Shown here one piece after another: positions 16,402-64,000 of a DNA stretch of 64,000 nt (positions are counted from its first letter, which is position 1; the number at the start of each line of letters is the position of its first letter). The notes under the pieces were generated by a model, which was not told the origin of the DNA, did not search any database, and saw only the letters and a program-made list of their open reading frames with translations. The DNA lies in IMG/VR virus record IMGVR_UViG_3300027983_001732, positions 1,035-65,034 of that record. One strand, 5' to 3'. The translations under genes and the position numbers were made by a program. The stretch is from a virus (taxonomy: Duplodnaviria > Caudoviricetes).

Positions 16402-17019
16402 TTATTTCTGGATAATGCCTACACCATAACGAGTGTTAAAAATTATTGGTTCACGGTTTTTTACCCTGCAAAACTCGTGAAAAACATCATGTTCTGTTAT
16501 ATAGTCTGCGACTAATAATCCTTCTGGAACCAAAAATTTCCACAAGAAATTCAGATGTTTCAGATATTTTTCTTCTCCAAAGTTTTCTGTAAGAAACCCA
16601 AGATCGAATCCAGAAAATTTCTTTGCATTAGGAATCTCAGTTTCCAATATATCATCCGTAAATGATATACAAGAAATAGGACCGGGCATAATATCATTAA
16701 AATATTTCGTGTTTAACTTCAAATTGGCTGTAATTATTTGAACAGTAAATGTTTTGTCGTTGTTCATCGCCAGCCAACTTTCAACTGTCTTACAACTTTT
16801 AAGGAAACATGCTCCTACAAGTCCAAGTTTGGCTCCAATCTGATAAACATTTTTTGATTTAAGCTGTTTTCCAAGATGGTAATAAAACGGCAAGTAGTTG
16901 CCATCCTTGTAATCTCCAGCATTTCTTGAAGATTCGTCTATAAGCTTGGTCCCAGACAACAAAATATCTGGAGATATTAAGCCTAACTCAAGTTGTTTGC
17001 GAATTAATTCAGAGTCCAT
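16402..17019 (-). CDS. Degenerate class I SAM methyltransferase-like protein
   Basis: YQIGAKLG and LVPEGLLVAD motifs. Confidence 0.5.
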   Translation of the reverse strand: MDSELIRKQLELGLISPDILLSGTKLIDESSRNAGDYKDGNYLPFYYHLGKQLKSKNVYQIGAKLGLVGACFLKSCKTVESWLAMNNDKTFTVQIITANLKLNTKYFNDIMPGPISCISFTDDILETEIPNAKKFSGFDLGFLTENFGEEKYLKHLNFLWKFLVPEGLLVADYITEHDVFHEFCRVKNREPIIFNTRYGVGIIQK

Positions 17020-17027
17020 AAACAAAA

Positions 17028-17061
17028 AGAGTGTGACAGAAGTTTTCTTCTGTCACACTCT
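17028..17061 (-). terminator. Strong intrinsic terminator downstream of a solitary repeat
   Basis: 15-bp perfect stem AGAGTGTGACAGAAG/CTTCTGTCACACTCT followed by T-tract on minus strand. Confidence 0.75.
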
Positions 17062-17086
17062 CAGTTAGATGAAGGCACTTTCGAGA

Positions 17087-17122
17087 GTGCCTTGATACTA
17101 TCGTTACGAATAGCATAGGCAC
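17087..17122 (-). repeat. Solitary variant of the array repeat (family A)
   Basis: Minus strand GTGCCTATGCTATTCGTAACGATAGTATCAAGGCAC, 29/36 identical to the array repeat. Confidence 0.8.
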
Positions 17123-17265
17123 AAGTAATGACATCATGTCTAGCCGCAGTTGTGTCTAATTCTTGTCAATCAGACACATAACCCCCATCTTTCATACTAT
17201 AGTGACAACTATTCATATTATGTTTTAGTATTGAAATTTTCGACAAATTTTATTATACATAAGAT

Positions 17266-18054
17266 ATGGGAAATTTTAAAAAATTCATAGAATCAACTGG
17301 AATAGTCAGACACGATTTCAGCCATTTATCAAAAGATGAAAGATTAAAACAAGGAAAAGATATTGGAGAGAAATTTATTAAAGATGAACTTCTCAATCAC
17401 GGAATCAAAATCGTCACAGTCGATAACATGATGTCACTTGACACTAAGTTGAAAATTGACGGATACCTCAACGGAAATCCCAGCGAACCAGTTCAAATTA
17501 AATTGAGAAAAACTGGTCGAGGTAGTGATGATATAGCATATGAACTAATTCTTGGCTTTGATCCAAAACTGCCAGTTGCAGATCAATTAAACAATCCAAG
17601 AACACAAGGTCGTGATTACAAAGGACAATCTGTAAAACATTATTTTGTTATGAATCAAGATGAAACCCAAATATATCACATTCCAGCAGATATGCTAAAA
17701 ACAACAGCACTTGACGCTATAAAGCAAACTAGCGGAATAATCGACAGAGCGTTCAGAACGAAAAATGGTGTTGAAATAAGACCAACTACCGATAATAGTT
17801 CTGGCGTCTCAAAATTGATGGTTTTTATACCAGCAGAACGAGTCGCAAAAGAAGCATACACAGTGGGTCAAGGAAAAATCCAACCTACATTCGGTGCCAA
17901 CTCTGGACCTCACACATCAATGTCAAAGAAAGATTTCAATATAGCTGCCGCAGAAGAACGATTAAAGAATCTTCAAGCAAAACAAAAATTAGCTAATGAT
18001 TTTCGTAAACAAAAGCAGGCAACTCCTGCTCAAACTGATGTTGATATTTCATAA
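17266..18054 (+). CDS. Hypothetical protein, possible PD-(D/E)xK fold, with capsid-targeting-like N-terminus
   Basis: MGNFKKFIE start; KIDG...VQIK motif. Confidence 0.55.
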   Translation: MGNFKKFIESTGIVRHDFSHLSKDERLKQGKDIGEKFIKDELLNHGIKIVTVDNMMSLDTKLKIDGYLNGNPSEPVQIKLRKTGRGSDDIAYELILGFDPKLPVADQLNNPRTQGRDYKGQSVKHYFVMNQDETQIYHIPADMLKTTALDAIKQTSGIIDRAFRTKNGVEIRPTTDNSSGVSKLMVFIPAERVAKEAYTVGQGKIQPTFGANSGPHTSMSKKDFNIAAAEERLKNLQAKQKLANDFRKQKQATPAQTDVDIS

Positions 18055-19225: not shown

Positions 19226-19261
19226 GTGCCTTGATTCTATCCTATTGAATAGCATCAGTAC
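19226..19261 (-). repeat. Solitary near-perfect array repeat (family A) overlapping the uvsY stop codon
   Basis: 35/36 identity; TGA stop at 19255-19257 lies inside the repeat. Confidence 0.92.
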
Positions 19262-19797
19262 ATCGCAGAACGTAAGTCATCTGCGAATCCGCCTTTTTCA
19301 TCTTCACTATAAGACTTGATTGTTTCTGAAATCAAATCATCATTAACTCCGCTGTGCATGTAACCTTTGCCACCCATGATGTCACTATTGAGCTTATCCA
19401 TCATCTTGCGTTGCATGTGCCCCAAACTCTGAGCGTTGTCGTGATTCTTGTCCCAAGCACGCAAATGTTGCTTCAATCTATTGACAGCATATTTTGCATC
19501 ATTAACTTTCTCTTTAAAAGCCACAACATCTGGATCAGCCTTTGCCTTTGCTTCAGCTAACTTGTCACTGCCGCCAGACTCCTTTGCTTCAATAAATCGA
19601 TCAGCCGACAGTTTTTCATGGCGTAATTCGAAGTTCTGTAAATTCTTCTCAGCTAATGAGAGATAAGCTCCGAAATTGTCGTAGTAACCAGCTTCAGTCT
19701 GAATATATTGAGACAGATTGTTTTCATTGAAACGAAGGTTTTCTGGATCAATTTCAACAATAACTCCTGCAAACTCTAACTTCTCTTTTCTTGACAT
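19255..19797 (-). CDS. UvsY-like recombination mediator
   Basis: Helical protein with SDKLAEAKAKADPDV pattern, downstream of helicase in a UvsX/gp32 context. Confidence 0.55.
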   Translation of the reverse strand: MSRKEKLEFAGVIVEIDPENLRFNENNLSQYIQTEAGYYDNFGAYLSLAEKNLQNFELRHEKLSADRFIEAKESGGSDKLAEAKAKADPDVVAFKEKVNDAKYAVNRLKQHLRAWDKNHDNAQSLGHMQRKMMDKLNSDIMGGKGYMHSGVNDDLISETIKSYSEDEKGGFADDLRSAMY

Positions 19798-21386: not shown

Positions 21387-21486
21387 TTATACCTCTTCTT
21401 TAACTAGGCTTGTTAGCCGAGATATTACAGAAAAGTCTGAATTTCGTCTAGTCAGCTTGAATAAGAAATCTGAACTGTGCAGGCAA

Positions 21487-23355
21487 GTGCCTTGATTCTA
21501 TCCTATTGAATAGCATCAGCACAAGAAAAATCGGTCTTTTAGTGCCTTGATTCTATCCTATTGAATAGCATCAGCACTTGTTCTTTTTGTGGCTCTTCTG
21601 CCAACGTACTTTGCGTGCCTTGATTCTATCCTATTGAATAGCATCAGCACAGTAAGTCTGATTCGTGCCTTGATTCTATCCTATTGAATAGCATCAGCAC
21701 TTTTGACACTTGATGACTTACTGGTCTCTTGCTGGTGCCTTAATTCTATCCTATTGAATAGCATCAGCACGAGGATCAAAGACCTTTGTGAGATCAAAGG
21801 TTTCAAGTGCCTTGATTCTATCCTAGCAATTTGACCGCTGTCGTCGGTTGCTTTGTGCCTTGATTCTATCCTATTGAATAGCATCAGCACCAAACCCTTT
21901 TTTGACATCACTAACTGGTGCCTTGATTCTATCCTATTGAATAGCATCAGCACACCCGAGTCTTCAGTGGACACGTGCCTTGATTCTATCCTATTGAATA
22001 GCATCAGCACCGAGGGGCAATTTTTCACCGTTTGTCGGCAATCAAAGTGCCTTAATTCTATCCTATTGAATAGCATCAGCACCTGATTTCAAGATTCGAA
22101 TCTTGTCCAGTGAGTAACGTGCCTTGATTCTATCCTATTGAATAGCATCAGCACATGAATTTAACTGTTCTTGTCGTGTCATTGTGTCTAGTGCCTTGAT
22201 TCTATCCTATTGAATAGCATCAGCACAAAATAGAAGTGAGTTCCCCGACCTGTAGTGACTTCCGTGCCTTGATTATATCCCATTGAATAGCATCAGCACT
22301 TGTGAGGGAAGAAGACTCAAATCTTATCTGACAAGTGCCTTGATTCTATCCTATTGAATAGCATCAGCACTGTTACTAACCGACACTCAACAAGCGGAGT
22401 CAAATGTGCCTTGATTCTATCCTATTGAATAGCATCAGCACCTCATTGCCGCCGTCAGGGTGATAGGTGCCTTGATTCTATCCTATTGAATAGCATCAGC
22501 ACTGGTGTGTGTATTCCAGAAGAGAGAGGTTGAGAGGAGTGCCTTGATTCTATCCTATTGAATAGCATCAGCACCGTTGGTTCTATTTGTGTTTTTGACC
22601 AACTCAAGAGTGCCTTGATTCTATCCTATTGAATAGCATCAGCACGTGATCAATTGCTCAAAGTAGGCAGTTGGCTGTGAGTGCCTTGATTCTATCCTAT
22701 TGAATAGCATCAGCACTTTAGTGTCTGACCTTTCCAGTGTGTATATCTGCTGTGCCTTGATTCTATCCTATTGAATAGCATCAGCACACAATTCCGTTTC
22801 CGCACATCCACGCAAACCTGTTGGTGCCTTGATTCTATCCTATTGAATAGCATCAGCACGCTTGTCGCTCAAGTTCTCTGATCTCATCAGGATAGTGCCT
22901 TGATTCTATCCTATTGAATAGCATCAGCACGTGTATCCACCTGCTGATAAATCTCCAGTTTCTAGTGCCTTGATTCTATCCTATTGAATAGCATCAGCAC
23001 TTTTTCTGCTGGTGCGTCCGAAATTAACCCCCCAGTGCCTTGATTCTATCCTATTGAATAGCATCAGCACGTATACCCCCCAAAACTCAAAGCGTATGTC
23101 CTTTGTGCCTTGATTCTATCCTATTGAATAGCATCAGCACTGCTGGTCACACAGACAGCAGCAGTTAAGTTTGTGAGTGCCTTGATTCTATCCTATTGAA
23201 TAGCATCAGCACATCTTGACGATCGTTTTCTTTACGAGACGCTTGCTGTGCCTTGATTCTATCCTATTGAATAGCATCAGCACCTCTAAGACAGCAAAAC
23301 TTATCTTTCCTTCAGAGCCGTGCCTTGATTCTATCCTATTGAATAGCATCAGCAC
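21487..23355 (-). CRISPR. CRISPR array: 28 repeats (one truncated), 27 spacers; sense repeat GTGCTGATGCTATTCAATAGGATAGAATCAAGGCAC
   Basis: 36-nt repeats counted by hand; most spacers 34-37 nt; shortened spacers mostly at the cas-distal end; starts 65 nt after the cas12h stop. Confidence 0.98.
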
Positions 23356-23420
23356 TGCTGTCTTCGTAAGTCCAATCAGCCAAACAACATAAACATTCAA
23401 AAATCATGCACGTGGCACAA

Positions 23421-26186
23421 CTAAGCCGTATGATCTTTCAAAATCGTTTTAAAGTCAACGTCTTTTGTCGTAAGTGCTTTAGCACCAACATCTTTTGAAG
23501 AATCATGCACCTCTGGTAAGGCAAAATTGTTGTATCTTCCATCTGGATCACATGTTACGTCAAATTCTTGGCAATTCGGCTTCTCCACGGCTAATTGCTT
23601 GATTTTGTTTACCATCTCGTTGTGCAGTTCGCAAGTAACAATACAAGAGGAATGTGCATAAACAAACTGGTTAATCAATCGAGTTTGAGTGCTATCAATT
23701 TTTTTTGCAAATGTAACTCGACCTCTATCATCCGAAACAAATTTAGGGACAGAAGAACCGTACTTCAAATTGAAAAATCTCTTAATACGCTTGCCAATGG
23801 CTTCTTCAGGTTTCTTAATCGCATTGATGCTATCCTGAGTGGAATTCGGCTTATTTTCATATTCCTTGACATAGAATTTGTATGGACAAACAGAATGGTT
23901 TAAACCTTGAATCAAAATATTCATCGTGGCAGCCAGATCTGAATCAATCCAACCCAATTGTTTGTCTCTGACAACATACAACCTAGATTTGTTTTTGTCA
24001 TCACGCCATCCGGGATTGGAAGTAACAGGATCGCTTTGTGAAGTGCCATTCTTGGCGACTTTTACAAAACCAACTCCAATTTTTTCAAGAGCTTCTATAA
24101 TGTATTTTAATAATGTCGCCGCCGAAAACAAACGCAACAAAGCATTGTTGTTTTTGTCTGAATCAAATATGAAATCAAGATCTTCTCCAAACACAACATT
24201 ACAATCTTTCATTTCATTGGCAATCTTTGACGCAAGTTGTCTCAAAACAAAATTTCTGAAATTTGCTCTGCTTTTATCAAACTTTGCGACTTTTACCAGT
24301 TTTTCTCCCGATTTCAAATGAATTCTATTATAAGATTCAGCCATTGAAGCACACTGATCCATAGCCTCAATCAAACGAATATTATCTGCACAATCACGAT
24401 ATCCTCCAGAACGCATCTCAAACTTAATTTTTCTCAAGCGAGAATTGATTTTTTTAACCCATGACTGAATTAAATATCGAGTTGAAGAAGATTTTGTGTC
24501 TCCACATAAAATCAAAAAATCACGAGTGTCTTCACCCACATGTTCTTTAACTGCGTTAGAAACTTTAAATTCTCTGATTGCTCCAATAACACGTCTGGCA
24601 TCGTCTCTGATTTCTATCAAATTTTTGATTCTTGGACCATTTGCCACCAACATGAATGGTTTTTTAATGAGATTCCCTGAACCATAATCTAAAGCGTTTA
24701 ACTGTCCGCTTTTGTCGTCACGATAAACAACTGCTTTAACGGCAGCGACAGGATTTGACACATTCAGATCAATAGCTCCGACGACTATTTTGTCAGGAAG
24801 ATTCTCTACATTTTCTTTCTTTGGACAAGCCGACATAAAAAATTCTGCAATTTTGAAGTTTTTCTCGTCGTGATGAATCGAATAAGGGAGTGATACAAAA
24901 AACCCAGAATCTGTATTACGCAAACCAATCTCTTTAAGAACCCCAGAAATTTTATCTCCTGTATGAGATGCTGCTTTTACGGCCTTCTTGCCTTTACTTA
25001 TCGACTTATGACAGAAATTCAAAGAATAACCAGTACGACCATTTTTATTCCTAATTTCATCAAAAACAATACCGCTGAAATAACAAGATGCAGCACACCT
25101 TATGACTCCGACACCGACGATTTCAATAAGCACATCGCCAGAATCTTCAACTGACACAGTGAAGTTTCCTAGAGATCCCTGCCCTACAGGAACTTTATAG
25201 TCATTTCTATTTGGATCGAAACAAGGATACAATTTTCTTTTTTCTAACTGTTTCTTTGTCCTCCAGCAAGAATAAGCTGACATAATTTCTGAATATGATG
25301 ATTCAATCAGAATCCTGTATTTATTCTTCTTAAGTTCTTTAACAGCAAGTCTGATATCTGTTTTTTCTCCAGTTCCTTTTTTTACATGATCTATGCCTTT
25401 TGTCAAAACATACTTTGTGAGACCTGAATTTTTCGATTCTAATTCTGCTGCAAAACAACAAATAGAATCATAAACAGGCCCTTGTTTATCATTCATCGAC
25501 AGTTTAATCTTTTCTGTTTCCAACAAATGGTTGTTGTACTTCTCGAAAATGGACCTCAAATCCCTGCCAACCATCTCTATGAGAATGCGACAATAATTAC
25601 AATCTCTTGAACGAATGCAAGACAATCCAAATGCCAATCTGAGATCCACTCCTAGCGATCTTTCAATTGATGCCAATCTGGGAGACACTTCCGCCCAAAT
25701 TTCAGGCAGTGGTAAATTTTTAACTCCATATTCCAACCATTCTTCAATGCAAATTTGAGAAAGTTGTTCATCGGTCTTGAAGTATTCTTTAATCTTGTTT
25801 TCATCGAGCAAAGGCAAGGCTGACAAAAAATCATTCTTTTTTTGTGTTAATTTAGCCTTCCCCAGAGACTTGTAATTTCTATAGAAAACATTGTAACAAG
25901 AAGAAGCATTTTCACCTCCTTTAAGAAGAAGTTCAATAAAACTAACTGCCAACTGTTCTTTTTTGGCGTCACCGATTGTTAATGATCTCAATCTTTCGGA
26001 TTCTTCTTTAGATGTGTAAAACACTTCATCTTCGGCATTTGTGCCATAGCCAATTGCCATCCACCCAAAAAATAAATTCAAAAAAGAACGGTAGTCCGAC
26101 TGTAAATCTGCATACCACTGCATGACTTCTTCAGCAGTATTCTTTGCCTTAAGGTTTCCGGTTCGAATAAAAGATCTTGTAGCCAT
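23421..26186 (-). CDS. cas12h: Type V CRISPR effector, Cas12h-like (subtype V-H), about 921 aa
   Basis: RuvC motifs GAIDLN, VFGEDL, IDSDLAA; segments WYADLQ, LKGGxxxSSCY, ALDYGxG, GLNHSVCPY resemble Cas12h1 as recalled from memory; adjacent array with GTGCTG...GCAC repeat; start at MATRS after an AAAGGGA RBS. Confidence 0.85.
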   Translation of the reverse strand: MATRSFIRTGNLKAKNTAEEVMQWYADLQSDYRSFLNLFFGWMAIGYGTNAEDEVFYTSKEESERLRSLTIGDAKKEQLAVSFIELLLKGGENASSCYNVFYRNYKSLGKAKLTQKKNDFLSALPLLDENKIKEYFKTDEQLSQICIEEWLEYGVKNLPLPEIWAEVSPRLASIERSLGVDLRLAFGLSCIRSRDCNYCRILIEMVGRDLRSIFEKYNNHLLETEKIKLSMNDKQGPVYDSICCFAAELESKNSGLTKYVLTKGIDHVKKGTGEKTDIRLAVKELKKNKYRILIESSYSEIMSAYSCWRTKKQLEKRKLYPCFDPNRNDYKVPVGQGSLGNFTVSVEDSGDVLIEIVGVGVIRCAASCYFSGIVFDEIRNKNGRTGYSLNFCHKSISKGKKAVKAASHTGDKISGVLKEIGLRNTDSGFFVSLPYSIHHDEKNFKIAEFFMSACPKKENVENLPDKIVVGAIDLNVSNPVAAVKAVVYRDDKSGQLNALDYGSGNLIKKPFMLVANGPRIKNLIEIRDDARRVIGAIREFKVSNAVKEHVGEDTRDFLILCGDTKSSSTRYLIQSWVKKINSRLRKIKFEMRSGGYRDCADNIRLIEAMDQCASMAESYNRIHLKSGEKLVKVAKFDKSRANFRNFVLRQLASKIANEMKDCNVVFGEDLDFIFDSDKNNNALLRLFSAATLLKYIIEALEKIGVGFVKVAKNGTSQSDPVTSNPGWRDDKNKSRLYVVRDKQLGWIDSDLAATMNILIQGLNHSVCPYKFYVKEYENKPNSTQDSINAIKKPEEAIGKRIKRFFNLKYGSSVPKFVSDDRGRVTFAKKIDSTQTRLINQFVYAHSSCIVTCELHNEMVNKIKQLAVEKPNCQEFDVTCDPDGRYNNFALPEVHDSSKDVGAKALTTKDVDFKTILKDHTA

Positions 26187-26224
26187 TGATGTCCCTTTGA
26201 GTTGTTGATTGTAATCAAACAATC

Positions 26225-27505
26225 TTAAAGAACACAATCAATGTTGTCAACTCGAATCACATCAGAATTATCCTGTGTTAACTGAGCAAGGATTTCTGCA
26301 TATTTTAACCCAACATTTTGCCATGAGTTTTCTGTAACAAAGTTTTTTGATTTCTGTAACAATGAGTTCCTGTAATCTCCAGATGTGAATACTTTAGCGA
26401 TCTCATCAGCTAATTCTTCTGGATTGCTTGGTCGTGGAACAACTCCATCGAGATCATCAAACAAATGACAGTCACTAGCGATCACGGGAATGCCATTTGA
26501 CATCGCCTTGCGAATCGCACCAGATGCCCCATAAACCGTATTCTTCGGATCGTTCTTGTATGGGAAGACCGCCAACTTAGCAGTCCTCAAGAAGTTCTGC
26601 ATGTGCTGCTCAGACAAATAGCCACGCAACACAACTACGTTATCTTGTAACCCTTTCTTTTCAACTAGATCTCTAATCTCATTGTAATATCGAGCCTGAA
26701 TTGAACGTGTGTGATTGCTCTCGCTGCACAAGAAACAATAAAATATATCCTTAAACTCTTCTGATCTGTTCTTCAATATACTTACAGCCTCTATTGCACA
26801 ATCAAGACCTTTATAATCAAAACCAAACCCAAATTGAATAATCGTGCGTTCGTTTTGAAATATATTCCACAATTGCTGTGTGTTTTCATATAAGTTGCAA
26901 CCATGCGGCAAAACAAAAACTTCATTACGATGACCCAGCCTCTCCAAACATATTTTTCCATTTGGATTATGAGTAATGATGTTTTTGATATAAGAAGTGC
27001 AAATTGTTTTATCAAGATGCTCATAAACCGAATGCAAAGTAATCACATAAGGAATGTTATTAAACATTTCAAGTAATTTAAGGAAATGAGTGGCTTTTGG
27101 AAAAATTCCAAATTCATGTTGGATGAATATTATGTCTGGACCATAATCAATGATCTGTTGAGCTAAATCAATGCAACTCTGCCCACGTTTCCAACAGCGT
27201 TCAACATCATCATGAGCACCTTCCATAGTTTCTGCAAATATCTTGACTTCTTTGACATGTTTGCGAAGTTCTGGAATTAGTTGCTCGCTATAAGTTGCGA
27301 TTCCACATTGATCGCCCCAATTACAGATCCCGGCAACCTTCAGTTTACTCAACGGCTTTGCATTTCCTACAACAACCTTCTTTCCGACCAGAGACTTGTT
27401 TTCTTCCAAGCCCGGCACATAAATGGTTTTGTTGCCGCCGATACGAATGGCTTTATCTTTAGAAACCGCCTGTATCATTCCTGCTTGATTGATCGAAACG
27501 TACAT
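26225..27505 (-). CDS. GT4-like glycosyltransferase
   Basis: CGIATYS, IQHEFGIF, FGFGFDYKG, SGAIRKAMSNGIPVIAS. Confidence 0.85.
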   Translation of the reverse strand: MYVSINQAGMIQAVSKDKAIRIGGNKTIYVPGLEENKSLVGKKVVVGNAKPLSKLKVAGICNWGDQCGIATYSEQLIPELRKHVKEVKIFAETMEGAHDDVERCWKRGQSCIDLAQQIIDYGPDIIFIQHEFGIFPKATHFLKLLEMFNNIPYVITLHSVYEHLDKTICTSYIKNIITHNPNGKICLERLGHRNEVFVLPHGCNLYENTQQLWNIFQNERTIIQFGFGFDYKGLDCAIEAVSILKNRSEEFKDIFYCFLCSESNHTRSIQARYYNEIRDLVEKKGLQDNVVVLRGYLSEQHMQNFLRTAKLAVFPYKNDPKNTVYGASGAIRKAMSNGIPVIASDCHLFDDLDGVVPRPSNPEELADEIAKVFTSGDYRNSLLQKSKNFVTENSWQNVGLKYAEILAQLTQDNSDVIRVDNIDCVL

Positions 27506-29549: not shown

Positions 29550-30872
29550 CTAGTTGTTCCATAACACCCTCATATCATCGAGTCTAACTCCAAATTTGAT
29601 CTCGACGCTCATCTTCAAGCCGGGACAAAGCCGTGATTCTGCCTCTAATGTATCTTTCATTATTCTGTAGGTGTTTTTTGCTATTTGTGTAGAACAAATT
29701 ACGCCGTAACCGTCATGTATGCTGAAAGCTAATTGTGCTCCAGTGTTGTTTAATGCTCGCCAAAGTTCAATCAATTTCTCTTGACATACTGTGGCGGACA
29801 CAGACTGTACAACAAAATTGCGAGCTAAGTAGGCTTTATTGGATTCGTATTTTCTTGGTCTTCCAAAATGATCTTTAACTGTTCCTGTGTCGCATGCAAT
29901 TCTTTGTTTCTCTTTAACCCAATTAATAGCTGTCGAGAAAATAGAATTTATATTTTTTATTACGCTAACTGCCGCTGACTCTGGAACTCCTAACATATCT
30001 GCGAGAGATACAGGTCCAAGTCCATATACGACAGGTAGAAACATCTTCTTTGACATTTTGCGTTTAATCTCTGTGTCGCATGGCAAGCCAGTAACAACTT
30101 CATAGATCTTGCAATGTAAGTCTTCTCCTGAATCTAAAATTTCTTTGAGTTTATTGTCACCTGATAACCATTGCAAAACAACCACTTCGCAGAACCGAAA
30201 GTCAGCAGTTGCGAAACGAAGGCCGTAACCCTTTGTTTTCATAACTTTTTTAACATCTGGTCCCAAGTTGTGAGGCAGGTAGCATCGTGAAAATTTCTTA
30301 GAACAACTTAACCTTCCGTTCCTTTGTCCCTCAATTTCATAGTAGGGATGCTCGGTGCGTCTGGTCTCGCTGTTTAATAATCCTGTCGTTTCGATTGTTG
30401 GTAAAACTCGATAGGACAACGGAATGTGAATGGATTTGTATATATCTTTCCAATCATTGTTTTGAAAAACGATGTTAATTCGATTAGATGCTTCTACAAA
30501 ATTATCAGGGACATTTTTTTGAATGTCCAAAAAAGCTTCAATGACTTTTAGATCAAGAATATTGTTCTTTGGTGTTACAAATTTTGTAGTATGATATTTG
30601 CAAAAGCTTGCTAAAGATTTGAAGTTCCAAAAAAACACTCTAGGCACAAACTCTTTATTAAAAATTGTGGCGTCGAGAAGACCCATAACAGAAGCTGTGT
30701 TGCCTGATGAAATATCTAACTCCACTCGTGAGTTTTTACCACAAACAATAATCTTAAATAAAATACTGTCTGTAAAATCCAATGTTTCTGGTTCTGTTTT
30801 CACAAAAACCACTTCATTGGATTCCAGTAGTTCAGCCAGTAAAATTGATGTCTCTTCAAGATTCATACTCAA
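29550..30872 (-). CDS. Short family A DNA polymerase-like protein
   Basis: Motif A ADFRFCEVVVL, DLH, motif B RKMSKKMFLPVVYG, FGRPR, NFVVQS, motif C IHDG. Confidence 0.8.
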   Translation of the reverse strand: MSMNLEETSILLAELLESNEVVFVKTEPETLDFTDSILFKIIVCGKNSRVELDISSGNTASVMGLLDATIFNKEFVPRVFFWNFKSLASFCKYHTTKFVTPKNNILDLKVIEAFLDIQKNVPDNFVEASNRINIVFQNNDWKDIYKSIHIPLSYRVLPTIETTGLLNSETRRTEHPYYEIEGQRNGRLSCSKKFSRCYLPHNLGPDVKKVMKTKGYGLRFATADFRFCEVVVLQWLSGDNKLKEILDSGEDLHCKIYEVVTGLPCDTEIKRKMSKKMFLPVVYGLGPVSLADMLGVPESAAVSVIKNINSIFSTAINWVKEKQRIACDTGTVKDHFGRPRKYESNKAYLARNFVVQSVSATVCQEKLIELWRALNNTGAQLAFSIHDGYGVICSTQIAKNTYRIMKDTLEAESRLCPGLKMSVEIKFGVRLDDMRVLWNN

Positions 30873-30939
30873 ATCTTATCAGATCAGAGATTCCGAAACT
30901 ACCCTGAATCAATTAAATACTTTGTAACTTATCTCAGTC

Positions 30940-30976
30940 GTGCCTTGATCCTGATCCTGTTGAATGGCATAAGAAC
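30940..30976 (-). repeat. Solitary degenerate array repeat (family A) upstream of the polymerase gene
   Basis: Minus strand GTTCTTATGCCATTCAACAGGATCAGGATCAAGGCAC; 5 substitutions and 1 insertion relative to the array repeat. Confidence 0.75.
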
Positions 30977-31059
30977 CTTCAGTCCATAAGGGATGCCATG
31001 GTTGTGATCATAATAGATATAAAAAATAAAATCACTTTATATTTCCTTAAGTAATAAGG

Positions 31060-31432
31060 CGATTTACAAAGTGCGTGCATTCTCTACACCCAGTGAAAAT
31101 GACTCTCACTGCGTCTATTATGATACAACTTGAAGTTGTTTTAATTGATGGTAGTTGTGCTTCACACTTGGGTGATTCCCAAGTGATAATCACGAATCTC
31201 CTAACCAGATGACCTGCTCGTAGCCCCGGCAGCCGCTTTAAAAAGCAGAACGAGCATTCATGGCATCGCCGGGTTTAGTGATCTGGATTACCTAGATTCT
31301 TGACACAAGACGCTGAGTTCCCTAAACTCGTCCGGTTGCGGTAAGACCTACCCGCTGTCAAGGTTTTTCGCCGGATTTCAAGTGACCATCTGACCTGAAA
31401 TACCCGACCTGTTAATTTGAAAGTAGCTTCAA
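31060..31432 (-). ncRNA. Candidate structured non-coding RNA or long leader
   Basis: No ORF; many inverted repeats; GC-richer than flanks; downstream of a sigma70-like promoter. Confidence 0.4.
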
Positions 31433-31437
31433 CTCTA

Positions 31438-31466
31438 ATCTTATCAAGTTAACTTAAAGAAAGCAA
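31438..31466 (-). promoter_or_regulatory. Sigma70-like promoter with extended -10
   Basis: TTGCTT-N17-TAAGAT with TGn immediately before the -10. Confidence 0.55.
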
Positions 31467-31555
31467 GACCTTTTCTGTAAAAAGATCCATTGTTATAAAC
31501 TTTTAAAACAGATACAGTACATGCTCACAAGCATAAATATGAAAATTCTTTAATT

Positions 31556-31591
31556 GTGCTGATGTTATTCAGCAGGATTGCATTAATGCAC
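31556..31591 (+). repeat. Solitary array-repeat variant (family A) containing the RBS and start codon of the next gene
   Basis: GTGCTGATGTTATTCAGCAGGATTGCATTAATGCAC, 29/36 identity; ATG at 31586. Confidence 0.75.
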
Positions 31592-32314
31592 AGATACGAC
31601 GCTATTTTTGAATGGAATATGACTTCTCCAGAGACCGAAGCCTTTAAATTGGCTGTTCTTTATGAGCAAGAATTCTTAAGATTGTTCGAAGGAACAGAAG
31701 AAATTGATGGACAAGGGTTCAGAAGAAATACAATTCCAAAACGTGGAGACCCTCGAAAGTCAGATTTGTTTCGCCAATGCTGGAAACTCCGTCGAGAAAC
31801 AAGAGGTTTGTTAACAGGAGAGCAGTACGTTAATTATGTTAAGGCTAATTTGGCGATATTGAAGATCAACAAATCTCATGTTTCTCCCAATGCCATTTGC
31901 GGAGACAAAGCGTGGATTAGATGGAAGGTTTGGGAAAGATGGTACACTCAAAAAATGAGCGAAAAATCTTGTGTCGCACCACCACCATCTGTATCGACCA
32001 CAGATCCGAAGATCATTCGAGAAATTGATAGAACGAAAAAGTTTTTGTTCGAAAAATGTGATGGAGAACCATCATCTGAAAAAATTCGTGGATTCATGGA
32101 AAATGGATTTTTTAAACTTTGGATTGTTTCTGGCAAGGCTTCAATCTATTATGTTATGATGTCTCCATATGCCCAACCATTCATCAATGATTTAGCTCAA
32201 TCGTGTTCTTTTGACCCTCCAGTGTTTCGAGAAAAAATAACTTCTGAAGTAAGGGATTACTTTCATTATGAGTTCAATCACGAGTTTGACAGAATTCGGC
32301 TCCCTTCAAATTGA
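31586..32314 (+). CDS. Hypothetical phage protein
   Basis: 242 aa from ATG 31586; AGGA upstream within the repeat. Confidence 0.65.
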   Translation: MHRYDAIFEWNMTSPETEAFKLAVLYEQEFLRLFEGTEEIDGQGFRRNTIPKRGDPRKSDLFRQCWKLRRETRGLLTGEQYVNYVKANLAILKINKSHVSPNAICGDKAWIRWKVWERWYTQKMSEKSCVAPPPSVSTTDPKIIREIDRTKKFLFEKCDGEPSSEKIRGFMENGFFKLWIVSGKASIYYVMMSPYAQPFINDLAQSCSFDPPVFREKITSEVRDYFHYEFNHEFDRIRLPSN

Positions 32315-37340: not shown

Positions 37341-39548
37341 ATGAGATTCTACGAATTCCACCAAATTGTTAAATCAGAAAATCCGCCAGCACTCAAGCTG
37401 CAATGGGACTATAACGCCGATACGTTCCGATCATGGCTTATGTCTGAAGTTACTAAGGATATTGTCAGGGAATTGGAATCGTGGAAAGATGAAAATCCAG
37501 ACGAACTGCCATTTCATGGACTATTTCCTGCTGAAAATGATGAGTCAATCACCCGGAAAGTCATTCCATTCACCGCTGATCCAAACGCAACAGGAATTTT
37601 AGATAAAATCAAAAACGCTGGACTCACTATCGACTTCAAAACAGGTACAGTGAGCAATGGACAACGTGCTAATCGCTTAGGTAAATTCGTATTAAACAAA
37701 AACTCTCCGTTCTCATCAGAAGAAAAGATTTGGTGGAACCGTAGCGGTGAACCGGTGCCAGAACTTCAAAGAACACAAAGCACTCACCAATACTCAATAG
37801 TTGTATCTCGCAATCCTGTTGATATTGCTCGCATGTCAGATCATGACGGATGGACATCATGTCATTCTCCAAGTCGTGAATATTTTCAATGTGCCTTAGC
37901 TGACGCTAAAGGTGGTGGGGCAGTAGCTTACGTCGTTAGAAAAGATGATCTAGCTGGCATTGACCTCCAAGAGCCAGAAATCTTTTCAGATAAAAGACGG
38001 GGAGTCAGTGGCGTAAACCCCATGTCCAGAGTGAGACTACGCAAATTCGTTCATAAAGAAGATGGATATGATCTCGCAGTTCCCGAAAATGTCGTTTATG
38101 GAGAAAAATTCCCCGGACTAGCCGATAGCGTAAGAGATTGGGCATTACAGTCTCAACAAGATATTCTAAAAGGTCAAAGAGTCCGTATGAAGGATTTCCG
38201 ATTAATGGGCGGCAGCTACCAAGACACAAGAGGAAGCCGTTTATTTAACTATCTATTTGACGATGAACTCGATACTGGAGATGCTGATTACGGCGGCGAG
38301 GATGAAGGACAAGGAATGTTTGACCAATACGAAGAAGAAGTCGAAATAATTGAACAAGAATACAGAGATAAATTCACTATTTGTTCCTTTTATGTAGAAG
38401 TACACGACTCCGAAGGTCAACCATATGTTGATTTCAGCGGCACTGCATACATCAAAATTCCAGAAGAACTACTTCTGACACCACCAGATGAAGCAGATAA
38501 ATGGGACCCAAAATCTAAGCGACGACAACTCGATGAAGGTCTCAAAAAATGGGCCAGAGAAAACGACATCTATAATGTCAATGAAATTAAATTACTTGAT
38601 GACGGAGTGCGTATCGACATTTATTCTGATGACGACGATGCCACGCCAGATGGTTTTAGAAACTTCCTCAGACACAAACTCAGCGATATTGACGGCAGGA
38701 AAGATGAACTCACAGCCAGCTTGTATCACAAATTGGTCGAACTCGGATTAGCAACTGCAAATAAAGTCTCAGAAATTAATCTGGATGACGACAAGACTGA
38801 TGAAGAACATATATTCCAAAACTTTGAATGGCAAGGCGAAAGCCCAGAAATCTCAATAGCACTCAAGCAACCAATGGAACTACCATCGCCGCCAACACCA
38901 AAATCTGGCGCTGCCCCTCAACACGAATATCCACATTGGCAAGATCAATTCAAAAACACAGTCACACAACAAATCAAAGCGTGGGCGAATAGAGTTTTTG
39001 TCAATCAGAAACAACAATTATCGCTCTTTCCAGATGCGAATGACCATAAAAAACCATTTGAACTGCATATCAAACCTGAGATCGAACTGAAGTCAAGTCA
39101 GAGAATATGGGAACAAGGACAACCATTATTAATGTATATGACGCTTAAATTCGAGACATTCTCAGATGATGAACATGTTGAAGAAGCAATTAATTTCGTT
39201 AAGTTTTTAGATAAGAGCTTCCCTAAATTTGAGAGTATGATACATCAGATATACATGAATTGGAGCAAAAATTTTTACAGGTCGATCATGAATCAGCAAC
39301 AGTGGCAGCCTCAGCAAACTGGTAACTGGAACTCCACTGGGTTCTGGAATTCACAACAAGATTCTCAGTCACAACAAGCTCAGTCACAACAACAAGCTCA
39401 GTCACAACAACAAGCTCAGTCACAACAAGCTCAGTCACAACAACAAGCTCAGTCACAACAAGATTCTCAGTCACAACAAGATTCTCAGTCACAACAAGAT
39501 TCTCAGTCGAAAGGTACGAAAAAACATGACAAACATTCCATTGTTTAA
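37341..39548 (+). CDS. Large hypothetical phage protein with Gln/Ser-rich tail
   Basis: 735 aa; SRNPVDIARMSD..WTSCH motif. Confidence 0.7.
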   Translation: MRFYEFHQIVKSENPPALKLQWDYNADTFRSWLMSEVTKDIVRELESWKDENPDELPFHGLFPAENDESITRKVIPFTADPNATGILDKIKNAGLTIDFKTGTVSNGQRANRLGKFVLNKNSPFSSEEKIWWNRSGEPVPELQRTQSTHQYSIVVSRNPVDIARMSDHDGWTSCHSPSREYFQCALADAKGGGAVAYVVRKDDLAGIDLQEPEIFSDKRRGVSGVNPMSRVRLRKFVHKEDGYDLAVPENVVYGEKFPGLADSVRDWALQSQQDILKGQRVRMKDFRLMGGSYQDTRGSRLFNYLFDDELDTGDADYGGEDEGQGMFDQYEEEVEIIEQEYRDKFTICSFYVEVHDSEGQPYVDFSGTAYIKIPEELLLTPPDEADKWDPKSKRRQLDEGLKKWARENDIYNVNEIKLLDDGVRIDIYSDDDDATPDGFRNFLRHKLSDIDGRKDELTASLYHKLVELGLATANKVSEINLDDDKTDEEHIFQNFEWQGESPEISIALKQPMELPSPPTPKSGAAPQHEYPHWQDQFKNTVTQQIKAWANRVFVNQKQQLSLFPDANDHKKPFELHIKPEIELKSSQRIWEQGQPLLMYMTLKFETFSDDEHVEEAINFVKFLDKSFPKFESMIHQIYMNWSKNFYRSIMNQQQWQPQQTGNWNSTGFWNSQQDSQSQQAQSQQQAQSQQQAQSQQAQSQQQAQSQQDSQSQQDSQSQQDSQSKGTKKHDKHSIV
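39351..39508 (+). repeat. Coding tandem repeat of 15/18-nt units (SQQ(Q)AQ / SQQDSQ)
   Basis: CACAACAAG(ATT)CTCAGT-type units. Confidence 0.9.
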
Positions 39549-63621: not shown

Positions 63622-64000
63622 ATGTTTTGGTTAGCTTTGTTGGTTTTGTTTATTATTAGCATATTTGCATACATCTTTATTGCAATTATTACAATGAAAA
63701 CGAAACCACGATCGAAATATTCTGTTGTGCATTATGATGGATGGGGAGATTTTAGGATGGTTCATACATCTCAACTAAACCATGATGATGACAAATCTGT
63801 CGATGATGACAAATCTGTCGATGATGACAAATCTGTCGATGATGACAAATCTGTCGATGATGACAAATCTGTCGATGATGACAAATCTGTCGATGATGAC
63901 AAATCTGTCGATGATGACAAATCTGTCGATGATGACAAATCTGTCGATGATGACAAATCTGTCGATGATGACAAATCTGTCGATGATGACAAATCTGTCG
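63622..64000 (+). CDS. Partial membrane-anchored protein with DDDKSV repeats
   Basis: ATG 63622, N-terminal TM (MFWLALLVLFIISIFAYIFIAII), open to the window end. Confidence 0.6.
   Translation, partial: MFWLALLVLFIISIFAYIFIAIITMKTKPRSKYSVVHYDGWGDFRMVHTSQLNHDDDKSVDDDKSVDDDKSVDDDKSVDDDKSVDDDKSVDDDKSVDDDKSVDDDKSVDDDKSVDDDKSVDDDKSV
63784..64000 (+). repeat. Perfect 18-nt tandem repeat GATGATGACAAATCTGTC, at least 12 copies
   Basis: Directly visible; runs off the window end. Confidence 0.95.

Follow-up and report, generated by a model that had tools for sequence, protein, structure and literature searches.

Solitary repeat units (SRUs) were reportedly described by Faure et al. 2019, as cited in Camara-Wilpert et al. 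2023. Phage solitary repeats that are bound by Cas proteins as RNA anti-CRISPRs (Racrs), including three against type V-A, are presented in the part of Camara-Wilpert et al. 2023 (PMC10651486) used here. Viral solitary CRISPR repeats have so far been understood as decoys against host CRISPR, whereas the phage studied here carries the matching effector. We analysed a 64,000-nt stretch of DNA from a virus of the Caudoviricetes (positions 1,035 to 65,034 of IMG/VR record IMGVR_UViG_3300027983_001732), hereafter the window, and examined SRU1, a solitary variant of the repeat of the phage's own Cas12h CRISPR array. Comparison with related phages gives us high confidence that, in this lineage alone, a solitary type V-H repeat was grafted into a leader and terminator that are older and conserved and that precede a methyltransferase-like gene. 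Our preferred reading, to which we assign a probability of roughly 40%, is that SRU1 would serve as a Cas12h-bound, non-targeting mimic or decoy of a CRISPR RNA (crRNA), nested in an mRNA leader.

Type V-H loci are described, in the part of PMC10691335 drawn on here, as an effector and an array with other cas genes absent. The same composition was found in the window, where a Cas12h effector is accompanied by an array and by no other cas genes. The features compared are the following:

17087 to 17122, minus strand: SRU1, a 36-nt variant of the Cas12h array repeat (GTGCCTATGCTATTCGTAACGATAGTATCAAGGCAC; 29/36 identical)
21487 to 23355, minus strand: the Cas12h CRISPR array, with 27 full 36-nt repeats and 26 spacers, directly downstream of cas12h
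23421 to 26237, minus strand: cas12h, an open reading frame (ORF) of 938 aa that matches Cas12h1 of PDB 8y9l (E 7.9e-191, Cas12h1 residues 25-887)

An earlier reading of the window, made from its letters alone (the sequence-only reading), had invoked Cas12h, and the match of the neighbouring effector to Cas12h1 bears this out.

The array repeat reads GTGCTGATGCTATTCAATAGGATAGAATCAAGGCAC on the minus strand, and SRU1 differs from it at 7 of 36 positions (5, 6, 16, 17, 18, 20 and 26). The SRU1 sequence has a single match in the window and none in 100 shuffles. The changes at positions 5, 6 and 26 convert a wobble and two mismatches into pairs (U.G, G/A and G.A become C-G, U-A and G.U), and the other four fall in the apical loop region. 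The minimum free energy is -14.4 kcal/mol for SRU1 compared to -12.0 kcal/mol for the array repeat. None of 200 shuffles folded as well as the SRU1 36-mer, and 1.1% of 20000 random variants with seven substitutions did so. The basal stem GUGCCU/AGGCAC is part of the minimum-energy fold of the 36-mer, and the secondary structure as a whole matches the hairpin of the cognate repeat, with a stronger stem. SRU1 probably forms a hairpin that binds Cas12h.

SRU1 is solitary and intergenic. The nearest other repeat copy is 2.1 kb away, and no full or partial repeat lies within about 100 nt; the sole nearby similarity to the SRU1 repeat is an inverted piece of 8-11 nt in its tail. Cas12h and its array sit 4.4-9 kb from SRU1, with cas12h 6.3 kb away on the same strand, and the promoter-like site found 130 nt upstream does not exceed chance. 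The identity of 81% fails the >=90% rule of SRUFinder, which another solitary copy described below (SRU2, 35/36) would pass. We also considered SRU1 as a degenerate terminal repeat of the array and rejected it, as five ORFs and 4.4 kb separate it from the end of the array and its flanks are homologous to the leader of the relatives. A literature search with 10-mers of the repeat returned unrelated primer matches only.

Through homologs of two flanking genes we found three related records, namely G001 and G002 (about 74% nucleotide identity, collinear) and G004 (88%). In 3/3 of these phages a homologous leader of about 155 nt precedes the gene for a 205-aa protein, and the repeat is absent there. 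The leader occupies 17020-17200 (minus strand) in the window, and L032 112-267, L033 2845-3000 and L034 2845-3000 in the relatives. From 5' to 3', the parts of the window's leader around SRU1 and the gene that follows are:

17181 to 17190, minus strand: 5' strand of helix P1, AGATGGGGGT; GATGG is invariant in 4/4 leaders, and pair probabilities are 0.77-0.99
17152 to 17177, minus strand: hairpin H1, GTGTCTGATT-GACAAG-AATTAGACAC, kept in 4/4 leaders (helix 2 of the alignment, 97.5% of cells paired)
17141 to 17151, minus strand: single-stranded linker AACTGCGGCTA, invariant in the leader comparison (AACUGCGGCUA in RNA form)
17130 to 17140, minus strand: hairpin H3, GACATGATGTC, counterpart of the relatives' H3 (loop AUGAK)
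17123 to 17129, minus strand: ATTACTT, the 5' flank of the inserted segment; by manual comparison it is not in the relatives, which run GATGTCC/CGAAA
17072 to 17086, minus strand: start of the tail, a TCTCGAA loop region and AGTGCCTT (3' arm of a fold-back), in place of which relatives have (T/A)CACCTC
17067 to 17076, minus strand: 3' strand of P1, GCCTTCATCT, overlapping the fold-back arm; CCATCT is kept in the relatives (helix 1, 90.9% of cells paired)
17027 to 17062, minus strand: intrinsic-terminator-like hairpin with 16 pairs (7 G-C) and a 4-nt loop, then TTTTTGTTT; the T tract is at 17021-17028
16402 to 17019, minus strand: ORF of 205 aa, like class I S-adenosylmethionine-dependent methyltransferases, with a conserved start MDxELIR

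The leader of the relatives consists, in order, of the GAUGG... 5' strand, H1, the linker, H2, H3, the tail, the terminator hairpin, a U tract and the ATG. Their H1 is GUGYCUGAUU-GACAAG-AAUYAGRCAY, their H2 is a small GNRA-type hairpin, and CCAUCU of their tail (CGAAWCACCUCCAUCUAA) forms helix P1 with the 5' strand. H2 is missing in the window, between 17141 and 17140. By parsimony, with the window and G004 grouped against G001 and G002, the window lineage appears to have acquired a segment of about 46 nt, made up of ATTACTT, the repeat and TCT, between H3 and CGAAA, and to have lost H2. This placement rests on the shared H3 9-mer CATGATGTC, and MAFFT puts the gaps elsewhere.

For the three relatives, RNAalifold gave 46 pairs, of which 4 are changed on both sides. 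The leader comparison is limited to four sequences; when they were aligned, 95.6% of cells in P1, H1 and the terminator were paired, with 4 pairs changed on both sides, whereas slid controls reached 38-52%. The terminator is both conserved and covarying (helix 3, with three pairs changed on both sides and 96.8% of cells paired), and H1 shows one compensatory pair among the leaders (U-A / U.G / C-G). A covariance model of the relatives found exactly one leader per record. Its match in the window spans 17018-17202 with the middle skipped (85.6 bits, E 1.7e-20), and the host leader thus looks intact. The other matches to this model were reverse-strand echoes of the terminator and one 17-bit match (E 0.035). 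Since the relatives carry the leader and terminator without the repeat, the terminator and most of the tail were present before the repeat arrived and do not belong to it.

In the parts of G001, G002 and G004 that were compared, no repeat-like sequence was found at <=3 mismatches to a degenerate pattern, a Hamming scan at <=12 mismatches gave one borderline match, which is the control rate, and no Cas12h is encoded. Searches of Rfam matched no family to the leader, either in the window or in the relatives; this conserved leader may represent a cis-regulatory RNA or a small RNA of an unclassified type. The 205-aa protein falls in Methyltransf_24 clusters of the Atlas (feature score 0.95, TM 0.72-0.79), and a Pfam search with it gave no match. 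Its distant homologs (L035-L040, 30-35% identity) are without such a leader. The arms of H1 (GUGCCUGAU.../...AAUCAGGCAC) resemble the ends of the Cas12h repeat, also in the repeat-less relatives, with a rough chance of about 0.07, which is not significant.

We next describe the tail of SRU1. The sequence downstream of the repeat on the minus strand is TCTCGAAAGTGCCTT. Here AAGGCACT (17093-17086) pairs with AGTGCCTT (17079-17072), forming a fold-back of 8 perfect pairs with a 6-nt loop. The other 29 repeat copies in the window pair with their downstream sequence over 2-5 bp, compared to 8 at SRU1, and 8 pairs were reached in 326 of 200000 shuffles of the 30 nt that follow SRU1 (p about 0.0016). 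The complementarity of the tail to the 3' end of the repeat is 8 nt, or 10/11 with one mismatch. About four changes separate the window's AGUGCCUU from the ancestral (T/A)CACCUC; they yield a perfect complement of the repeat 3' end and also duplicate SRU1's own 5' hexamer GUGCCU. The 5' strand of P1 has changed too (GGAG or GGCUUGG to GGGGGU), and P1 was kept, even lengthened. This new complement together with the retained P1 looks like an adjustment that followed the insertion, not like passive decay.

The repeat variant, the 8-bp fold-back, the two exclusive folds (with GTGCCT/AGGCAC as the alternative) and the strong terminator named in the sequence-only reading are all present and exceed chance. 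Its terminator was correct in kind and slightly off in size, with a stem of 16 bp instead of 15 and 4 nt instead of about 5 from the T run to the ATG (the ATG at 17019-17017 starts 4 nt past the T5 run). The same leader without the repeat in three related phages speaks against its further view that the region is a self-contained small-RNA unit with its own anti-repeat and terminator. It had also named a lack of conservation of the fold-back in relatives among the findings that would refute it, and the fold-back is not conserved there because the whole insertion is lacking.

Folded singly, each of the four leaders adopted the same architecture, with the number of junction arms preserved. In the window fold, the repeat adopts the canonical handle and makes up a new arm of the junction, which is closed by P1; in P1, AGAUGGGGGU (17190-17181) pairs with GCCUUCAUCU (17076-17067). 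Pair probabilities in the 181-nt leader are 0.82-0.92 for the basal stem of the handle, 0.77-0.99 for P1 and 0.06-0.09 for the fold-back. The canonical handle is predicted in the full leader because the tail pairs with the conserved 5' strand of P1. In the full leader the fold-back is a minor state. When the RNA starts at the first base of the repeat, as it would after processing of the Cas12h type, the fold-back reaches 0.40-0.54, similar to the handle stem at 0.41-0.46. The ensemble energy was -73.1 kcal/mol with P1 enforced versus -71.6 kcal/mol with the fold-back enforced. On these models, both exclusive folds are real and differ little in energy. The alternative pairings link four strands in a chain, which runs from the 5' strand of P1 through the tail to the 3' strand and then the 5' strand of the handle. 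This chain leaves the terminator untouched, and the terminator forms in every partial or complete fold.

These folds bear on another proposal, a Cas12h-sensing attenuator, in which binding of the handle would shift the four-strand chain and alter termination or read-through into the methyltransferase-like operon. The locus has the conserved structured leader, followed by an intrinsic terminator before an ORF, of attenuators and riboswitches, and its two states are nearly isoenergetic. In addition, the terminator ends 4 nt before the ATG, so that the gene would be expressible only by read-through. However, the terminator is present in both states, and the repeat-less relatives have the same terminator and leader. 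The sole antiterminator candidate noticed, CACUCUC/GAGAGUG, has probability 0. With no antiterminator pairing the switch has no structural support, and we regard it as improbable.

Under our preferred reading, in which SRU1 is a Cas12h-bound crRNA mimic, the leader would be transcribed from the minus strand, and the repeat would fold as the crRNA handle in the new arm of the P1-closed junction. Cas12h would bind this handle and cut at its 5' edge (17122), severing the leader. The product would be an RNA of about 100 nt, composed of the 36-nt handle, the 24-26-nt tail and the terminator hairpin. Its tail would be masked by P1, or by the fold-back on the handle once the 5' part is gone. Such a non-targeting ligand would tie Cas12h occupancy to the leader or operon rather than guide cleavage. 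The decoy guide suggested by the sequence-only reading is a possible account close to this one.

Several properties of Cas12h and the locus are relevant to these steps. The mature Cas12h1 crRNA consists of the whole 36-nt repeat as an elongated stem-loop without 5' flank, plus a 26-nt spacer, and Cas12h1 works with crRNA alone (both in the part of PMC11830025 at hand). Cas12h is counted among the self-processing Cas12 subtypes in the part of PMC11576732 used. The 24-26 nt of tail before the terminator stem match the 26-nt spacer part of the mature crRNA. The promoter-like site upstream of the leader is:

17252 to 17280, minus strand: TTTAAA-17-TATAAT (10/12), weak; a TATAAG/T box is also upstream in 3 relatives

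Promoter-like sites are fewer in the region (26) than in its shuffles (mean 31.4). We also considered a plus-strand, tracrRNA-like transcript (tracrRNA, trans-activating crRNA) and rejected it, as the T tract of the hairpin is on the minus strand only and the sole plus-strand promoter-like site (17202-17231) is downstream of the repeat.

A Hamming scan of the window found, besides SRU1, two further solitary copies of the repeat:

19226 to 19261, minus strand: SRU2, 1 mismatch (GTAC for GTGC), followed by TTTCTT
31556 to 31591, plus strand: SRU3, 7 mismatches, no longer with the canonical fold, overlapping the 5' end of an ORF ending at 32314

The first bases of SRU2 are the last codon (Tyr) and the TGA stop of the ORF at 19255-19797. 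At this site G001 and G002 have about 520 nt instead, including an ORF of 129-135 aa. SRU3 stands in place of the 5' untranslated region (UTR) and first codons of G001, and the protein alignment resumes at RYDAIFEWNM. The G32T change in SRU3 gives an in-frame ATG 8 nt past the AGGA of the repeat. An exact solitary copy of the array repeat was found in another phage fragment (G003:C1:26570-26605, that is L026 6675-6710, minus strand). It lies between tRNA-Phe and tRNA-Ser in a tRNA cluster and is followed by a tRNA-like 3' half (GGTTCAAATCC); this 36-kb fragment has no Cas12h and no other DNA shared with the window. All four solitary repeats point in the same direction as the genes or tRNAs around them. 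SRU2 or the G003 copy may already be in the SRU lists of PMC10651486, which, according to the part of the paper used, scanned IMG/VR3. Upstream of SRU3, a non-coding stretch of about 680 nt (30873-31555) extends from the PolA-like gene and contains blocks conserved in G001 (GAGTTCCCTAA...GGTTGCGGTAAGACCTACCCGCTGTCAAG). Rfam gave nothing for 30800-31700, and no match at E up to 1 in the 30873-31555 stretch.

The positions of these copies are also consistent with a neutral or purely structural scar. In that case the recombination or repair event that removed H2 would have pasted the repeat in, the insert would be tolerated or kept only as a substitute junction arm, and Cas12h would be uninvolved. 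Each solitary repeat lies at a rearrangement junction: SRU1 with the loss of H2 and the gain of about 46 nt, SRU2 in place of about 520 nt including an ORF, SRU3 in place of a 5' UTR and first codons, and the G003 copy beside a tRNA-like 3' half. The preserved number of junction arms, the degenerate SRU3, the absence of SRU1 in 3/3 relatives and the 85.6 bits that the leader still scores with the relatives' model also favour a scar. On the other hand, all stem changes in SRU1 improve pairing (1.1% by chance), the new 8-nt perfect complement in the tail (p about 0.0016) is unexpected of a passive scar, and 4/4 copies are sense-oriented. We consider a scar the main rival reading, possible though less likely than the crRNA mimic.

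Several considerations weigh against the crRNA mimic that we prefer. There is no obvious benefit to the phage from titrating its own effector, and selection may have acted on the hairpin solely as a structural arm in place of the lost H2. The location of all solitary repeats at indel or replacement junctions fits recombination scars, and the lost fold of SRU3 and broken basal pair of SRU2 are expected from decay. SRU1 is absent from the closest relative (88% nucleotide identity) and has, for this reason, no conservation record. Cas12h1 contacts the 5' segment of the crRNA from -35 to -29 (published work), and positions 5 and 6 of the SRU1 handle, which lie within this segment, are altered. Furthermore, Q10 of Cas12h1, the reader of G(-35), aligns with Gly in the window's ortholog; the recognition rules of Cas12h1 are therefore not transferable. 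Finally, SRU1 is 19% diverged from the array repeat, compared to about 8-12% divergence of its flanks from G004. This excess suggests that SRU1 may derive from a different array, with an effector other than the resident Cas12h.

Such a divergence, in a hairpin that is nevertheless perfect, is also an argument for SRU1 as a Racr against another Cas12h, encoded by the host or by a competing phage, which would have the SRU1 variant as its array repeat. Type V-A Racrs are documented in the part of PMC10651486 used. In contrast, a degenerate pattern matching SRU1 found no such array, with one match in viral_contigs (the exact repeat of G003) and 0 in genome_contigs. The protein search found only three Cas12h homologs, and a Racr of this kind would inhibit the phage's own Cas12h as well. 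A Racr seems very unlikely to us.

We also searched for targets of the guide-like tails. RTR presumably serves as the protospacer adjacent motif (PAM) of Cas12h1. In the Cas12h1 assays of the published paper, ATG was used as PAM. In the window, the 26 nt after SRU1 have no match with <=3 mismatches, and the tail gave one seed match beside RTR versus 0.53 for shuffled guides, which is not above chance. The SRU1 tail has no match in G001-G004 either. For the tails of SRU1-3 together, no targets above chance were found in the window, and in G001-G004 only the homologous G001 allele of SRU3 was found. Within the 64-kb window there is also no partial guide match to a promoter or gene start by a PAM, as in crRNA-like regulators.

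SRU1 could also be an orphan guide, whose handle and TCTCGAAAGTGCCTTCATCTAACTGA would direct Cas12h to a fixed target in the host or elsewhere in the phage genome. The layout is that of a mature crRNA (36 and about 26 nt), then a terminator, and self-cleavage would be avoided because CAC occupies the place of the PAM. In addition to the missing matches in the window and G001-G004, most of the guide is ancestral leader tail, and its positions 8-15 pair with the handle. We give an orphan guide the least credence of the explanations considered.

The match of SRU3 points in a different direction. Of the 26 nt that follow SRU3, 25 match the allele of G001, which has no repeat (L048 1460-1510), and the place of the PAM is GTG in the G001 allele and CAC in the phage's own copy. 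It is conceivable, and in our judgement unlikely, that the phage has seeded Cas12h handles at gene boundaries, using the effector as an RNA regulator, the solitary repeats as anti-allele guides, or both. Cas12h would then double as a virus-encoded RNA-binding and processing regulator of phage transcripts, with at least three handles in 64 kb and one more in a related fragment. The solitary repeats would turn adjacent conserved gene sequence into guides that act on alleles without a repeat in co-infecting relatives. They would form an allele-exclusion or homing device based on CRISPR, of which the SRU3-G001 match (25/26, with GTG) would be an example. Within this set SRU1, whose tail is masked, would be a gated or disarmed copy.

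The window makes up nearly all of a 65-kb IMG/VR virus record with a CheckV completeness of 13%, indicating that the record is a fragment of a huge phage (whole genome about 500 kb). It encodes a gp32-like single-stranded DNA-binding protein, a DnaB-like helicase and a PolA-like polymerase for replication. PDB and Pfam searches with the neighbouring ORFs were uninformative. The cassette of cas12h and array (21397-26287) stands in place of about 3.1 kb of G001. The protein search for Cas12h relatives returned three homologs only, among which the RuvC D/E/D columns show no variation, and no contigs carrying Cas12h relatives were found in viral_contigs, metagenome_contigs or genome_contigs. Array spacers are 14-37 nt long, apart from one 84-nt interval with a truncated repeat. 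Of the 26 spacers, none matches the window outside the array or G001-G004 beyond chance matches of 12-18 nt. The promoter-distal end of the array (21487-21900) is irregular, with spacers of 14, 19, 21, 25 and 27 nt, and the truncated repeat in the 84-nt interval consists of the 3' 19 nt at about 21808-21826.

Contigs from four DNA runs yielded identical low-depth pieces of the phage only, and no informative variant or bridge across 17020-17130. Low-depth, identical short contigs of the phage (15400-32400) occur in runs labelled estuary and microbial-mat metagenomes, besides freshwater runs, from which the phage may originate. Two tandem arrays of 18-nt units are also present in the window, at 63784-64000 (12 perfect copies, reaching the window end) and at 39351-39508 (9 copies, encoding SQQ-type repeats).

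If Cas12h binds solitary repeats, a viral CRISPR effector would be wired into the phage's own gene expression or into allele competition between phages. SRU1 would then also be a natural self-masked crRNA for a nickase-type Cas12, of biotechnological interest. If SRU1 is only a scar, it documents the spread of array repeats to recombination junctions in a system without Cas1 and Cas2. The dispersed handles at gene boundaries of a Cas12h phage are the part most worth testing.

Among known systems, the anti-repeats of tracrRNAs and scoutRNAs are short stretches complementary to the repeat. The short complement to the repeat 3' end in the SRU1 tail resembles them. However, the anti-repeat of SRU1 is in cis, Cas12h1 uses crRNA only, and the region is not framed by a plus-strand promoter and terminator. 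With attenuator or riboswitch leaders, the locus shares a P1-closed multi-helix leader, covarying helices and an intrinsic terminator directly before the start codon, and it differs from them in having no Rfam match and no predicted antiterminator.

CreR/CreA, tracr-L and scaRNA are crRNA-like regulatory RNAs. Of the same kind is the crRNA-like RNA (crlRNA) of bioRxiv 10.1101/2024.12.27.630466. SRU1 resembles these RNAs in combining a degenerate repeat outside the array with a short segment like a guide, which would load the effector for a task other than cleavage. Such RNAs match a promoter of their own genome partially, whereas no such match was found for SRU1 in the 64-kb window. Like the canonical Cas12h crRNA (in the part of PMC11830025 at hand), SRU1 has a 36-nt full-repeat stem-loop without 5' flank, then about 26 nt. 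Unlike in that crRNA, the 26 nt of SRU1 come from the leader and precede a terminator hairpin, and the handle differs at 7 positions.

SRU1 is similar to SRUs and Racrs in being a single intergenic repeat-like viral hairpin away from the array, in sense orientation and behind a promoter-like site, which here is no better than chance. By analogy, binding and processing by the cognate Cas protein without a working guide would be expected. SRU1 differs from them in its identity of 81%, which is under the 90% cut-off of SRUFinder, in its subtype (V-H), and in that the window phage itself owns the effector and the array. Rather than being a stand-alone small-RNA gene, SRU1 is nested in an older structured mRNA leader, with a self-complementary tail.

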